In this document: one piece after another, positions 5,109-62,087 of the stretch
Position numbering within the stretch: the stretch's first letter is position 1
Layout of the letters: each line of letters opens with the position of its first letter
NCBI GenBank assembly: GCA_031553635.1
Contig: JAVBLH010000019.1
Span: 2,639-66,638, forward strand
Direction: 5' to 3'
DNA length: 64,000 bases
Source: Evtepia sp.
GTDB lineage: Bacteria > Bacillota > Clostridia > Oscillospirales > Oscillospiraceae
Notes under the pieces: model-generated
What the model was told of the DNA's origin: nothing
The model's database searches: none
Seen by the model: the letters and a program-made list of their open reading frames with translations, nothing else
Position numbers and translations under genes: made by a program

Positions 5109-5477
5109 TTCCCCATGGGAATGGTGATTTGGTTCTACCATACTGATAGGTGTTTGGTTTTGTACCGCCCTGGCAGGACGGGGGAGCTTGTCTTTTCAGA
5201 CGGAACACCCTTTCTCACGTGAGAAAGGGTGGAAAGAACGCCAAGGGGGCGATTCCCCCTTGGAACCCCCTATGATGAAGTGGGTGCGAGGGCGCGCCTA
5301 CTGGGTGGGTCGTACGATTTGGTGTTACCATGCTCATGTAGGATAGGGTTTTTCTCTGGTTTCTTAAGAAAACGTGGTTTTCGGTAGGAATAAGCTGGTG
5401 GGCCGCAACCGAGGCTGTTTTTGGCTCGGGGCTTTTGTTGTGGTTCACTTTAGGTTGTTTGGGTGACTGAGGTAGTC

Positions 5478-5608
5478 ACCACCCCGCCCTATGGGCACCC
5501 CTCCACGGAGGGGAATTGTGTACTACTGTGAGGCAGCGGAAAACTCAAACCGCATCCCCCGTCCTAATTCCCCTCCTGTGGAGGGGTGGCACGAAGTGAC
5601 GGGGTGGT
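5478..5608 (+). repeat. F1 hairpin repeat, A-spacer-B
   Basis: Both arms intact; spacer GTGTACTACTG..CCCCCGTCCT. Confidence 0.92.
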
Positions 5609-5794
5609 TAACCGCCAGCGCAGCGCGCCCAGGGCTTGGTGTTTCCTCACCAAAGAACCACAGAAAAAAAGGACCCCGGGACAACCAAAGACAGTGGCAC
5701 TCACTGGGTGAAAACGGGCACGCCAAGACGCACCCAAGCCAAATCCCGCCAATTCGTACGGGTGTATCAAAAAAACCTGACCGTCTGCCATCAA

Positions 5795-5931
5795 AATTCC
5801 CCTCCGTGGAGGGGTGGCACGAAGTGACGGGGTGGTTTCGCCAGGTATGGAAACACGGTGACTACAACTGGGTGGTAATTTCAACGTTGAAACCACCCCG
5901 CCCTTTGGGCACCCCTCCACGGAGGGGAATT
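5795..5931. repeat. F1 back-to-back cassette (hairpin-B-55 nt-A-hairpin)
   Basis: 21-bp inverted repeats AATTCCCCTCCGTGGAGGGGT / ACCCCTCCACGGAGGGGAATT enclosing 97 bp (counted from hairpin ends). Confidence 0.92.
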
Positions 5932-23226: not shown

Positions 23227-23266
23227 ACCACCCCGCCCTATGGGCACCCCTCCACGGAGGGGAATT
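23227..23266 (+). repeat. Solo F1 arm A
   Basis: ACCACCCCGCCCTATGGGCACCCCTCCACGGAGGGGAATT. Confidence 0.88.
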
Positions 23267-39001: not shown

Positions 39002-39087
39002 AGCTTCGCAAGGCCGGGCCTTGTTCCGTTTTCACTGTGGTTCTCGGGCGAAGAAACACCAAGCCCTGGGCGCTGCGTTGGCGGTTA

Positions 39088-39410
39088 ACCACCCCGTCAC
39101 TGCGTGCCACCCCTCCGCAGGAGGGGAATTGTGTACTACTGTAAGGCAGCGGAAAACTCAACCCCCATCCCCCGGCCTAATTCCCCTCCAGTGGAGGGGT
39201 GCCCATAGGGCGGGGTGGTGACTACCTCAGTCACCCGCAAACCTCAACCCGCATCCCCGTCCTAATTCCCCTCCTGTGGAGGGGTGCCCAAAGGGCGGGG
39301 TGGTGACTACCTCAGTCACCCGCACACCCCAACCCCCATCCCCCGGCCTAATTCCCCTCCTGTGGAGGGGTGCCCAAAGGGCGGGGTGGTGACTACCTCA
39401 GTCACCCGCA
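39088..39410 (-). repeat. F1 array B-spacer-A-A-A (85-86-bp period)
   Basis: AATTCCCCTCC of arm A at 39179, 39264, 39350. Confidence 0.92.
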
Positions 39411-39513
39411 AACCCCAAAGAGAACCACAACAAAAGCCCTGCGCAGAAAAAAGCCCCGGTTGCGCCCCACCACCATGGTAAACCCAAAATAACCAAAAAA
39501 GGAGGTGACCTCC

Positions 39514-43914: not shown

Positions 43915-44051
43915 AATTCCCCTCCGTGGAGGGGTGCCCAAAGGGCGGGGTGGTTTCAACGTTGAGATTACCACCCAGTTGTTGTCACCGTGTTTCCATA
44001 CCTGGCAAAACCACCCCGTCACTTCGTGCCACCCCTCCACGGAGGGGAATT
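43915..44051. repeat. F1 back-to-back cassette, inverted relative to 5795-5931
   Basis: Internal 97 bp is the reverse complement of 5815-5911 (3 mismatches) with co-linear flanks. Confidence 0.92.
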
Positions 44052-47270: not shown

Positions 47271-47393
47271 ACCACCCCACCCTGCGGGCACCCCTCCACA
47301 GGAGGGGAATTTGGGTGGTAGATCGCAGAAGGTTTCTCAGCTCCCCCGTCCAATTCCCCTCCGTGGAGGGGTGGCACGCAGTGACGGGGTGGT
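47271..47393 (+). repeat. F1 hairpin repeat, A-spacer(type 2)-B
   Basis: Both arms; between gyrB and gyrA. Confidence 0.9.
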
Positions 47394-47436: not shown

Positions 47437-49419
<1,983 letters not shown>

Positions 49420-49434
49420 TTATTCTTTCGCCGC

Positions 49435-49510
49435 CCAAATTATCCAGTAGACAATTTGACCAGATTATGTGAAGCCACATCGAAGAAAGGCGCGAAGTAA
49501 AAGGATGATT
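49435..49510 (+). repeat. Degenerate F3 module + arm-B remnant just 3' of the DUF559 gene
   Basis: CAAATTATCCAGTAGACAATTTGA..GAAGCCACATCGAAGAA aligns gap-free to 35579-35631; followed by GGCGCGAAGTAAAAGGATGATT resembling GGCACGAAGTGACGGGGTGGTT. Confidence 0.7.
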
Positions 49511-49521
49511 CTATGTTCTTA

Positions 49522-49908
49522 TCAACCCGAATCTTCACACAAAGCAGGGTGATTATACAGCATTTCCATCACAGTATTCAGGTCATTCAAAACATCCTGA
49601 GCCTGGATGTGAATCACTGTCAGACCCAGACCCTCTAAATAGGCGTTCCGCTCACTGTCATACTCCTGCTTCTCATCATGGGACTTGCCGTCAATTTCAA
49701 TGACAACGTGACAATTTAGGCAGTAGAAATCTACAATAAAGTTGCCAATAATTTTCTGCCTGTCAAAGTCGAATTTATTAAACTTTTTTCTATTAAGCTG
49801 CTTCCAAAGGAGTACTTCACATAAGTACCCTGCTTTTCGCAGCTCTTTCGCTCGCTCTCGCAGGGTTGGATTATATGGAAGTGCGTTATATGCTTGATAG
49901 TTTCGCAT
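49522..49908 (-). CDS. DUF559 / Vsr-like PD-(D/E)XK endonuclease
   Basis: RAKELRK..E..LW..L, FDRQKIIGNFIVDFYC, VIEIDGKSH, D.ER..YL; visibly AT-rich. Confidence 0.88.
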   Translation of the reverse strand: MRNYQAYNALPYNPTLRERAKELRKAGYLCEVLLWKQLNRKKFNKFDFDRQKIIGNFIVDFYCLNCHVVIEIDGKSHDEKQEYDSERNAYLEGLGLTVIHIQAQDVLNDLNTVMEMLYNHPALCEDSG

Positions 49909-49945
49909 CGTTCACACTCTACTTCTTCGATGCTGTAACGGAGCA

Positions 49946-50075
49946 ACCACCCCGCCCTATGGGCACCCCTCCACGGAGGGGAATTGTGTCCTACTGTGAG
50001 GTAGAGAAAACCCAAACCGCATCCCCCGTCCTAATTCCCCTCCTGTGGAGGGGTGGCACGAAGTGACGGGGTGGT
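49946..50075 (+). repeat. F1 hairpin repeat immediately 5' of the DUF559 gene
   Basis: Both arms intact, 37 bp from the ATG. Confidence 0.92.
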
Positions 50076-50119
50076 TCCACTAGCTCTCCATAACGTATGC
50101 CAATCCCTTATCAGGAACA

Positions 50120-50389
50120 TCACCCAACAGAAAACCCCCCAGACTCCACCCTGCGCAGCAGGGTAGCCGAAGAAAGCTGCGACAGATACACCACCTCTTC
50201 CCCAAAGGAATCCCGGCACAAAACCATGGCCTTGGGCAGGTCCAGGGACACATCCACCACCCAGCCCTCCTCTTGGGCCCGTTTCAAAAACCCACGGGTC
50301 CGGTGGGACGTACTCACCTTATCCAGATCAAAAATCCCCACCACATCCCGGAAAGGAATCACAAAATTCTGCCCCAAATGGAGGTACAA
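50120..50389 (-). CDS. remB: DUF370 / RemB-like protein
   Basis: MYLHLG..VVGIFDLD, VYLSQLSSATLLRR; canonical position between recF and gyrB. Confidence 0.75.
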   Translation of the reverse strand: MYLHLGQNFVIPFRDVVGIFDLDKVSTSHRTRGFLKRAQEEGWVVDVSLDLPKAMVLCRDSFGEEVVYLSQLSSATLLRRVESGGFSVG

Positions 50390-50489: not shown

Positions 50490-50621
50490 ACCACCCCGCC
50501 CTTTGGGCACCCCTCCACAGGAGGGGAATTAGGACGGAGGATGCGGTGGGGGTTTTCCTCTCCCACTCAGGAGCACACAATTCCCCTCCTGTGGAGGGGT
50601 GGCACGCAGTGACGGGGTGGT
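50490..50621 (+). repeat. F1 hairpin repeat
   Basis: Both arms; between recF and remB. Confidence 0.92.
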
Positions 50622-52079: not shown

Positions 52080-52209
52080 ACCACCCCGCCCTATGGGCAC
52101 CCCTCCAAGGAGGGGAATTAGGACGGGGGATGCGGCTTGGGGTTTCCACTGTCTCACAGGAGTACACAATTCCCCTCCGTGGAGGGGTGGCACGCAGTGA
52201 CGGGGTGGT
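52080..52209 (+). repeat. F1 hairpin repeat (partial F2 follows at ~52225-52262)
   Basis: Both arms; between dnaN and yaaA. Confidence 0.92.
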
Positions 52210-53679: not shown

Positions 53680-53902
53680 ACCACCCCGACCTATGGGCAC
53701 CCCTCCACAGGAGGGGAATTAGGACGGGGGTGCGGGTTGAGTTTTCCGCTGCCTCACAGGAGTACACAATTCCCCTCCTGTGGAGGGGTGGCACGCAGTG
53801 CCGGGGTGGTTTCCCCTCCTATGGAGGTCAAATTGACCAGTGGACAATTTGATAAGATCATGGGAAGCCACATGGAAGAAGGGCAGGTCGTGACGGGGTG
53901 GT
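53680..53902 (+). repeat. F1 repeat + extra B arm containing F3 (53828-53880), between dnaA and the DnaA boxes
   Basis: A-spacer-B followed by a split B arm. Confidence 0.9.
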
Positions 53903-61408: not shown

Positions 61409-61481
61409 ATATTTTGGTGTTGCCATACGGGGAGGCATGTGGTTATGTACCGACCCCGTGGGCACTCTGCGTTGGCGGTTG

Positions 61482-61934
61482 ACCACCCCGTCACTGCGTG
61501 CCACCCCTCCACAGGAGGGGAATTGTGTACTCCTGTGAGGCAGAGGAACCCCACAAATCGCCTCCCCCGTCCTAATTCCCCTCCTGTGGAGGGGTGCCCA
61601 AAGGGCGGGGTGGTGACTACGCCAGTTAACCGTGTACTACTGTAGGGCAGAGGAAACCCCAAACCGCAACTCCCGTCCTAATTCCCCTCCTGTGGAGGGG
61701 TGTCCAAAGGGCGGGGTGGTGACTACGCCAGTTAACCGTGTACTCCTGTAAGACAGAGGAACCCCAAAAATCGCATCCACCGTCCTAATTCCCCTCCTGT
61801 GGAGGGGTGCCCAAAGGGCGGGGTGGTGACTACGTCAGTTAACCGTGTACTCCTGTGAGGCAGAGGAACCCCAAAAATCGCCTCCCCCGTCCTAATTCCC
61901 CTCCTGTGGAGGGGTGCCCAAAGGGCGGGGTGGT
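61482..61934 (-). repeat. F1 tandem array: one B arm + four spacer-A units (106-107-bp period)
   Basis: AATTCCCCTCCTGTGGAGGGG at 61574, 61680, 61787, 61894. Confidence 0.93.
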
Positions 61935-62087
61935 GACTACGCCAGTTAACCGCAAAACCCTATCCTACATGAGCATGTAAAAGCCCAAAACAGAAAAAAC
62001 CTCTATTTCAGCAATAGAGCCAAAATAAAATCCCACCGCCTGGGTGTAAAGGCGGTCTTTTGCCAACAGCAAAAGCGGAGCAAACTT

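Follow-up and report, generated by a model that had tools for sequence, protein, structure and literature searches.

A DUF559 nuclease gene and triplex-type hairpin repeats as a probable single unit beside the replication origin of an Evtepia genome

We analysed a stretch of 64,000 nucleotides, hereafter the window, from an Evtepia sp. genome (assembly GCA_031553635.1, contig JAVBLH010000019.1, positions 2,639 to 66,638), in which a small gene for a DUF559 nuclease lies beside the replication origin amid many intergenic copies of a hairpin repeat, F1. Our analysis indicates that gene and F1 repeats very probably form one unit. Across bacterial phyla, relatives of the gene occur as a compact cassette, a nuclease open reading frame (ORF) of ~125 codons bracketed by inverted arms of ~40 bp, and the gene with its two arms is well supported as the common or basal state. 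The partnership is well supported, whereas mobilisation by the nuclease remains an inference: that the enzyme itself drives the spread of the repeats is a tentative proposal about which we are somewhat doubtful, and the explanation as a whole, the best we have, seems to us evenly poised between right and wrong. A sequence-only reading of this DNA had proposed that the gene is the autonomous or ancestral partner of F1, using a nuclease outside the HUH class; the pairing into one unit and the lack of an HUH/Y1 gene with F1 stood, whereas movement of the repeats by the nuclease was not supported.

From outside to inside, an F1 arm consists of AATT ((A)ATT), a first hairpin CCCCTCC-N3-4-GGAGGGG, the dinucleotide TG, a small second hairpin and CGGGGTGGTT; cassette arms span ~40 bp, with the inner end written CGGGGTGGT(T). 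The small hairpin distinguishes arm A (GCCCTATGGGC) from arm B (GTCACTTCGTGC); its sequence is free to vary, with many compensatory variants, and its pairing is always kept. A strict count over the window's own genome (G000; 2.17 Mb in 41 contigs) gave 55 A and 43 B arms (98) in 46 clusters. The commonest unit, present in 40 copies, is a doublet with ACCACCCC at the outer ends and the hairpins pointing inward (A> 65–77 nt <B). The reverse arrangement (B< 55 nt A>) is found in two units only, and several arrays contain additional A arms that repeat every 86 or 107 bp. Within the window we counted 21 clusters, equal to the 22 loci listed earlier. F1 units are intergenic in every gene context, occupying five consecutive spacers of the dnaN-recF-remB-gyrB-gyrA cluster and leaving that cluster unbroken, and the doublet upstream of the nuclease gene forms a long hairpin when folded as single-stranded DNA (z about -5.7 to -5.8, using a tool that models hairpins only). 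An exact search for CCCCTCC-N4-GGAGGGG gave no matches because the loops are 3–4 nt long and the stems overlap, and arm-based patterns were used in its place. The window's genome has 50 matches to the exact arm pattern, and these are not a product of chance, since the same pattern reversed is absent from all 401 genomes of the order-level sample described below. Rfam yielded no known RNA family for F1, only sub-threshold, miRNA-like hairpin noise.

The strongest evidence for the partnership comes from homologous loci, for which we assembled 80 DUF559 loci from the genome collection together with loci from relatives. When upstream flanks were compared with reverse-complemented downstream flanks, ~25 of ~85 loci scored at least 30, whereas shifted-geometry nulls rarely exceeded 28. 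A regular expression for the arms located F1-type arms at fixed positions in 52 of the 99 loci on the protein tree, one arm ending just before the domain start and the other beginning within the last five codons. The armed loci, 52 in all, belong without exception to a single clade of 74 (support 99/95). Among the 25 loci of the second clade none has F1 arms, and other hairpin inverted repeats of the same design are present instead; this second clade also holds every DUF559 locus recovered from congeners and placed on the tree. Judged from these flanks, arm type covaries with protein clade, as the sequence-only reading had anticipated for cognate hairpins; we relied here on the clade counts, the built-in label test on the tree ('both arms' vs 'one arm') being uninformative. 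The window protein groups with copies from Clostridia (66–78% identity, all armed), which are nested among copies from Bacteroidota, Pseudomonadota, Armatimonadota and others in a patchy clade with up to 74% identity across phyla. Many relatives are in-frame insertions, with both arms, in hsdR, hsdS, type IIG enzymes and queA, the arms being translated as NSPPLEGCPKGGVV and NHPALKGTPPKEGN. Our literature search returned no paper linking DUF559 to repeats of this triplex type; closest to the subject were a table that names DUF559 among predicted targets of inversion (PMC9881135) and the study of triplex repeats by Holder et al. 2015 (PMC4666352).

Several of these loci deserve description in their own right. 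The same in-frame site of hsdR is occupied in five loci from four phyla (L020, L021, L022, L029 and L033, in Balneola, Calditrichia, two Bacteroidales and Cloacimonadales), the insertion being preceded by ...AYHQYYAVN.AV.STLRA and followed by ...GDRKGGVVWHTQGSGKS (Walker A). These cassettes differ in their number of arms, the arms of L029 are decayed, and a solo arm stands ~860–950 nt upstream in at least three of the genes (L020, L022, L029). In a type I restriction-modification (R-M) locus of Pseudomonadales (L031, 146–6352), F1-type doublets lie in frame within a 668-aa hsdS, at its two ends and in the middle, and so flank each of its two target-recognition domains, with the DUF559 gene directly downstream, followed by hsdM; all eight arms of this 3.5-Mb chromosome fall within 2.4 kb, a layout that suggests arm-mediated reshuffling of specificity domains. 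A metagenome-assembled genome (MAG) of Fimbriimonadaceae (G440) carries three arm-flanked cognate cassettes (C4:101285, C11:25077 and C5:31943), which fits copying of the cassette itself.

Co-occurrence was examined in an order-level sample of 401 genomes, with the cognate protein clade defined at ≥60% identity. The exact arm pattern is present in 11 genomes (G000, 50 copies; G323, 44; G151, 32; G102 and G292, 7 each; G356 and G171, 4 each; G070, G305 and G331, 2 each; G046, 1), the cognate clade likewise in 11, and both together in seven (Fisher odds ratio 169, p = 3e-10), which bears out the association proposed earlier; arms occur in only 4 of the 390 genomes that lack the gene. With a relaxed regular expression, 10 of the 11 cognate genes in these genomes are abutted by arms. 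In the genus, BLAST found the F1 unit in the window's genome alone among 37, the 36 congeners being without it, and the cognate clade was absent from both of the two congeners screened. The genus has a second arm family, CTCCCTC..GAGGGAG..TGAGGGAG (CTCCCTC-N-GAGGGAG-CTG-hairpin-ACTGAGGGAG), with many compensatory variants of hairpin 2, which is absent from the window's genome and multi-copy in 8 of 40 congeners (G036, G025, G003, G016, G444 and others; G036 alone has 24 copies, on 23 contigs). Its presence usually, but not always, goes with that of a DUF559 gene of the other clade.

Public sequencing runs X1–X3, an invertebrate gut metagenome and metatranscriptomes, contain F1-like arms on many contigs of other organisms and in other contexts, as loose ends and joints, so the repeat family appears to be common in that gut habitat. 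The locus itself was found in only three runs of one study, and only as contigs breaking at the repeats, which are uninformative as to empty alleles or polymorphic F1 sites; neither an empty allele nor an inversion was seen among them.

Arms also cluster around the gene. In seven genomes from which other DUF559 loci had been taken, a cognate gene is found within 10 kb of 43 of the 57 arms. In the three titled as whole chromosomes, which belong to other phyla, every arm (8/8, 2/2 and 5/5) lies at the cassette or within ~5 kb of it, and the four further genomes have 2/4, 17/20 (three cassettes), 7/16 (gene frameshifted) and 2/2 arms within 10 kb. Of the 98 strict arms in the window's genome, 57 share the gene's own 77.6-kb contig. 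Eight contigs (604 kb in total) account for 104 of 109 arms, and the remaining 1.57 Mb holds five relaxed-pattern singletons. These eight contigs map to ~770–1085 kb of the chromosome of the congener G007, in which gyrB lies at 910 kb, and so to within ~±170 kb of gene and origin; cluster density falls from ~3.5 per 10 kb near the gene to zero. Mis-binning was considered as a cause of this skew and rejected: GyrB of the F1-rich contig is 74–84% identical to that of congeners and 62–63% to that of other F1 carriers, and the positions of the F1 contigs on the congener chromosome form a single contiguous region.

The inner G-block, GGGGTGG, is the mirror of the purine strand of hairpin 1, GGAGGGG, with A replaced by T. 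Among arms flanking the 99 loci, a perfect mirror block follows 94 of 139 hairpins, as against 20 for a direct-repeat control (Wilcoxon p = 2e-13), and the relation holds in ~17 independent stem types, such as AGAGGGG/GGGGTGT, AAGGGAGA/AGAGGGTT and AGGGAGGGGG/GGGGGAGGGT. Each arm is predicted to be able to fold into an intrastrand purine-motif triplex. By sequence, F1 arms belong to the published BoxC/PIT/TM (TMECO) class, as a variant with a long second loop, since loop 2, at 10–30 nt, exceeds the published loop rule (1–6 nt in Holder et al. 2015, PMC4666352; 0–10 nt in Hoyne et al. 2000, as cited in PMC4666352).

At the window's own locus, an AT-rich DUF559 gene of 128 codons had been recognised at the remB–gyrB junction, and this identification was confirmed (profile score 105.3 bits, against a curated cut-off of 20.6). 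The gene has a G+C content of 38–44%, compared with about 58–60% in the flanks, is the only match in the whole genome and sits in a 742-bp spacer of the conserved origin cluster dnaN - S4-like - recF - remB - gyrB - gyrA. Empty sites, which the sequence-only reading had suggested might be found in relatives, do exist, as the spacer measures only 72 bp in G015, ~40 bp in G007 and 17 bp in G017. The intact F1 unit near the start codon was likewise recovered, as a doublet of arm A (~49946–49986), a filler of ~50 nt and arm B (~50033–50076), whose proximal arm A serves as the left inverted repeat of the cassette. The resemblance of the last codons to an arm start proved to be that of a decayed arm: at the same position G041 and many further homologues have an intact arm, AACCACCCCGCCCTT, which is read through as NHPAL and continues into a full arm. 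The plus-strand order of B-end, gene and A-start, corresponding to the slot of a ~55-nt filler, is matched by the two type-2 cassettes (Table 1). The proposed arm-B remnant past the stop codon is the weakest element, matching at 16 of 22 positions with a score that 4 of 300 shuffles equalled. A promoter and terminator scan returned nothing useful on the strand of the gene.

The predicted nuclease appears intact and selected. Its sequence matches PDB entry 3HRL (E=1.5e-16), and a Foldseek search with an AlphaFold2 model (pLDDT 84.7, pTM 0.80) placed 3HRL first (E=7.8e-7, TM 0.79) and the catalytic domain of I-Bth0305I (3R3P) second (E=3.6e-4, TM 0.71), with Vsr (1CW0) also retrieved at a probability of 0.92. 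The predicted structure has a Vsr-like alpha/beta fold with conserved acidic and histidine residues. Ten residues are invariant in 49 homologues (R24, W35, F48, R50, Q51, I58, D60, F61, E71 and D84) and two nearly so (D73 and H77), and the window protein has the conserved residue at every one of these columns. Comparison with its closest relatives gave a nonsynonymous divergence (dN) of 0.14–0.25 with saturated synonymous divergence (dS), which argues for long-term purifying selection and against recent import from any sampled relative; with dS saturated the dN/dS ratio is not computable, and the conclusion is qualitative only. The hairpin-1 and G-block sequences of the arms recur at these loci despite the saturated synonymous sites in the gene, and their recurrence suggests selection on the DNA itself.

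From these observations we propose the following course of events. A cassette would have landed in the remB–gyrB spacer beside the origin, its upstream arm surviving within the present doublet and its downstream arm decaying to the codons NHPAL. The F1 repeats would be gene-less copies of the arms, mostly inverted A/B doublets, that multiplied in this lineage only and are still concentrated around the gene. The nuclease may recognise the folded arm, or the palindromic junction of two arms, and nick or cut there; recombinational repair or template switching could then copy arms, with or without the gene, to nearby sites, and segments between inverted arms could be flipped, and arrays built, in the same way. 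If the protein acted preferentially in cis, close to where it is synthesised, the local spread would be accounted for. An ancestral partnership fits the fact that, where the gene occurs outside this order, most arms adjoin it. Relative to arms A and B, the main ~50-nt filler is found in either orientation (15 vs 8; for example 49946–50075 vs 50490–50621), the product that would be expected of recombination between inverted arms. In one subfamily the doublets have additional conserved modules on their outer sides (...GGGCTTTTGTTGTGGTTCTCTTT..GGTTAACTGACGTAGTC at one end and TAACCGCCAACGCAGCGCGCCCAGGGCTTGGTGTTTC..GAGAACCACAGAAAAAA at the opposite end), giving a nested palindromic composite of ~330 bp that is present at 5400–5660, 39050–39430 and 61440–61980 of the window and on other contigs.

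A number of results weigh against a nuclease that spreads F1. One is G323, a 99% complete genome with 44 very homogeneous arms over ~28 contigs and no cognate gene; its only DUF559 proteins are distant (38–39% identical) and associated with different repeats. The outcome that the sequence-only reading had named as refuting its proposal, F1 equally abundant in lineages lacking DUF559, is seen in one lineage. Arms without the cognate gene also occur in G102 (7 arms), G305 and G046, and the second family is found in G025 (10 arms) and G002 (3 arms), neither of which has a stand-alone DUF559 gene. Incompleteness of MAGs could hide a repeat-flanked cassette of 0.5 kb, and the cassette does lie on a 1.6-kb contig in G151 and at a contig end in G041; we regard this as an excuse, not as evidence. 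The geometry is also awkward: 40 F1 units are inside-out (A> filler B<) with respect to the gene cassette (< gene >) and two share its orientation, such that F1 is not a simple internally deleted miniature inverted-repeat transposable element (MITE) of the cassette, and the alignment of the 40 units shows no target-site duplication or clean insertion boundary. The window's cassette has lost its right arm and its gene is single-copy, RNA contigs of the source study cover that gene weakly (depth 2.3, against 25 for remB), and strand transfer and DNA joining lie beyond a nuclease acting alone. Finally, gene-centred and origin-centred clustering are inseparable in the window's genome, where gene and origin coincide; the other genomes point to the gene as the cluster centre.

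The chief rival to a spreading nuclease is a passenger or homing reading, which we consider unlikely though the one most deserving of attention: the arms would be self-folding repeats spread by host replication or recombination or by another factor, and DUF559 a homing-type selfish gene that cuts and inserts between '<' and '>' arms, the association reflecting its choice of target. The arm-bearing genomes without the cognate gene (G323, G102, G046, G025 and G002) speak for it, and so do the gene-less '< 55 nt >' cassettes and the hsdR site occupied in five loci. Taken together, the inner arm ends make up a perfect palindrome, GGGGTGGTT | AACCACCCC, which the gene interrupts, and the closest characterised fold is that of a homodimeric homing endonuclease with a pseudopalindromic target (PMC3239194). 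It is also in keeping with the work of Holder et al. 2015 (PMC4666352), who found no genes for mobility around the TM repeats of E. coli. Set against this, the three genomes titled as whole chromosomes have every arm at or near the cassette and no pre-existing population of targets; arms are rare among gene-less genomes; cassettes in hsdR, queA and type IIG genes bring both arms along; and arm number drops with distance from the gene in the window's genome.

An improbable alternative holds that nuclease and arms together start recombination (inversion or gene conversion), with R-M loci as their home, where they reshuffle specificity domains; on this view the origin copy would have strayed from its home, with the spread of F1 as a by-product. 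The closest relatives do lie in frame in hsdR, hsdS and type IIG genes, the L031 doublets are in frame in a two-domain hsdS beside the nuclease gene, F1 fillers occur in both orientations, and 'DUF559 domain-containing protein' is 14-fold enriched among predicted targets of programmed inversion (a table row in PMC9881135). The window's copy, however, has no R-M gene adjoining it, 46 dispersed intergenic insertions would be left unexplained, and inversion was not directly observed in reads that gave contigs only.

Still less credible is a host function, in which F1 would serve the origin-proximal domain structurally or in regulation (by organising the chromosome, binding a protein or directing mRNA processing) and its DUF559 neighbour would be a coincidence. 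It would suit the five consecutive spacers of the unbroken origin cluster, the confinement of F1 to the origin-proximal region and the origin-ward clustering of the related repeats of E. coli K-12 (PMC4666352), but F1 is missing from 36 congeners by BLAST and from 390 of the 401 order genomes, arms are scattered in G323 and follow the gene in other phyla, and PIT elements had neither promoter nor terminator activity in published tests (PMC4666352). That F1 is of REP/REPIN or MITE type and owes its movement to a conventional transposase (HUH Y1 or DDE) whose gene lies elsewhere can practically be dismissed, in spite of its doublet architecture, palindromic fold and intergenic location, given that PF01797 is absent from G323, G151 and G102 and represented in G000 by a 19-residue fragment only, that no target-site duplication is found and that the DUF559 cassette is the only longer element sharing F1 ends.

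Two specific candidates were rejected along these lines: an HUH/RAYT partner, for which no PF01797 gene was found in the four arm-bearing genomes tested, including the three richest, and a simple MITE model, owing to arm orientation and the lack of target duplication. The fragment mentioned above, of Y1 (IS200) type, lies at a contig end (G000:C23:172785-172841) with no F1 nearby, and the genome has no other trace of an HUH enzyme.

Table 1 Positions of the nuclease gene, its arms, representative F1 units and flanking genes in the window.
Feature	Position	Strand	Remark
DUF559 / Vsr-fold nuclease gene, 128 aa	49522–49908	-	PF04480 match, E=2e-30
Decayed inner end of downstream arm, now codons NHPAL	49540–49554	-	AATCACCCTGCTTTG in the window, AACCACCCCGCCCTT in homologues
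Weak arm-B-like remnant between stop codon and gyrB	49489–49510	+	16/22 matches to GGCACGAAGTGACGGGGTGGTT
F1 doublet directly upstream of nuclease gene	49946–50075		starts 37 nt from ATG
F1 doublet, recF-remB spacer	50490–50621		filler inverted relative to doublet at 49946
F1 doublet, gyrA-gyrB spacer	47271–47393		
F1 doublet between S4-like ORF and dnaN	52080–52209		
F1 doublet upstream of dnaN	53680–53810		
Type-2 cassette, B< 55-nt filler A>	5808–5918		arm orientation as in gene cassette, gene absent
Second type-2 cassette, A< 55 nt B>	43928–44038		
Array: one B arm, then four A arms	61482–61934		period ~107 bp
Array: one B arm, then three A arms	39088–39390		period ~86 bp
gyrB, flanking host gene	47437–49377	-	74–84% identity to congener GyrB
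RemA/remB-like ORF, flanking host gene	50120–50389	-	PF04025 E=1.9e-4, below curated cut-off; orthologues adjoin gyrB in congeners

Two further observations concern arms or insertions close to reading frames. A solo A arm of the window (23227–23253; C20:25865-25891) lies within a stop-to-stop frame of 521 aa on the minus strand, near its upstream end, and may stand just upstream of the true start or be translated. In two other genomes (G041:C9:23582-25711 and G051:C1:48054-50078), the match to GyrB is split at about residue 220 by ~80 extra in-frame residues, the open frames measuring 753 and 682 aa; F1-like arms are abundant in G041.

The DUF559 proteins make up a very large orphan family, and BoxC/PIT/TM repeats have, to our knowledge, been without a known partner or origin for about thirty years. 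The arm beside each gene is an obvious candidate substrate, which makes both orphan problems testable. To a linkage that is tight, clade-specific and shared across phyla, the window adds order-level co-occurrence, gene-centred clustering and counter-examples. The boldest formulation of our proposal, that DUF559 nucleases are the missing partners of BoxC/PIT/TM-type repeats in a second, HUH-independent nuclease–repeat symbiosis, in which the folded arm is nicked and repair copies it, flips segments and builds arrays, preferentially in cis so that repeats gather around the gene, and that this genome is seen in mid-expansion at the origin, is possible, although we think it rather unlikely. If a nuclease did act on a folded triplex or hairpin, this would be a new kind of structure-specific DNA recognition and a new means for repeats to invade the genomes of bacteria, with essential operons among the places reached and, in relatives, reading frames as well.

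Among known systems, MITEs derived from insertion sequences resemble F1 in being short, gene-less inverted-repeat elements that share their ends with a gene-bearing element; they differ in that the cassette has no DDE transposase or target duplication and that most F1 arms are oppositely oriented to those of the cassette. Rickettsia palindromic elements (Ogata et al. 2000) reportedly lie in frame within protein-coding genes and are translated, as are the cassette relatives and solo arms found in genes here; we know of no enzyme associated with them, and F1 in the window is intergenic. The homing endonuclease I-Bth0305I, of the EDxHD group, which is homodimeric with a pseudopalindromic target (Taylor et al. 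2011, PMC3239194), shares the catalytic fold and the habit of selfish nuclease genes of invading conserved genes. Unlike that system, the window gene shows no intron or intein, the cassette brings its own inverted repeats, which are read through in frame, and the ORF has only ~29 residues N-terminal of the region aligned to 3HRL, whereas I-Bth0305I is multidomain with a footprint of ~60 bp.

The repeats themselves are closest to the BoxC/PIT/TM class, which is abundant across bacteria and occurs in inverted A/B pairs, and whose TM members cluster towards the origin in E. coli K-12, where no mobility genes were found near them (Holder et al. 2015, PMC4666352). F1 shares with this class the pyrimidine, purine and G-rich mirror blocks of a class II purine-motif fold, its multi-copy, intergenic occurrence, often in inverted pairs of subtypes A and B, and the origin-ward clustering seen in E. 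coli K-12. It departs from the short-loop design, loop 1 being 3–4 nt and loop 2 a covarying hairpin in its own right of 10–30 nt, and it is tightly linked to a DUF559 gene, whereas the published work found no mobility-related gene near its repeats. In organisation the system most resembles REP/REPIN-RAYT (Bertels & Rainey 2011, PMC3116915; PMC3337134): a single-copy nuclease-type gene is flanked by a repeat that is also dispersed as spaced inverted doublets (here one gene and 40 doublets in 46 clusters), and each protein clade has its own cognate repeat. The differences are that the enzyme here has a PD-(D/E)XK Vsr fold and is not an HUH Y1 protein of PF01797, that the repeat is a hairpin plus a mirror G-strand, that F1 copies cluster near the gene, and that the gene clade is patchy across phyla, in contrast to the mostly vertical descent of RAYT genes.

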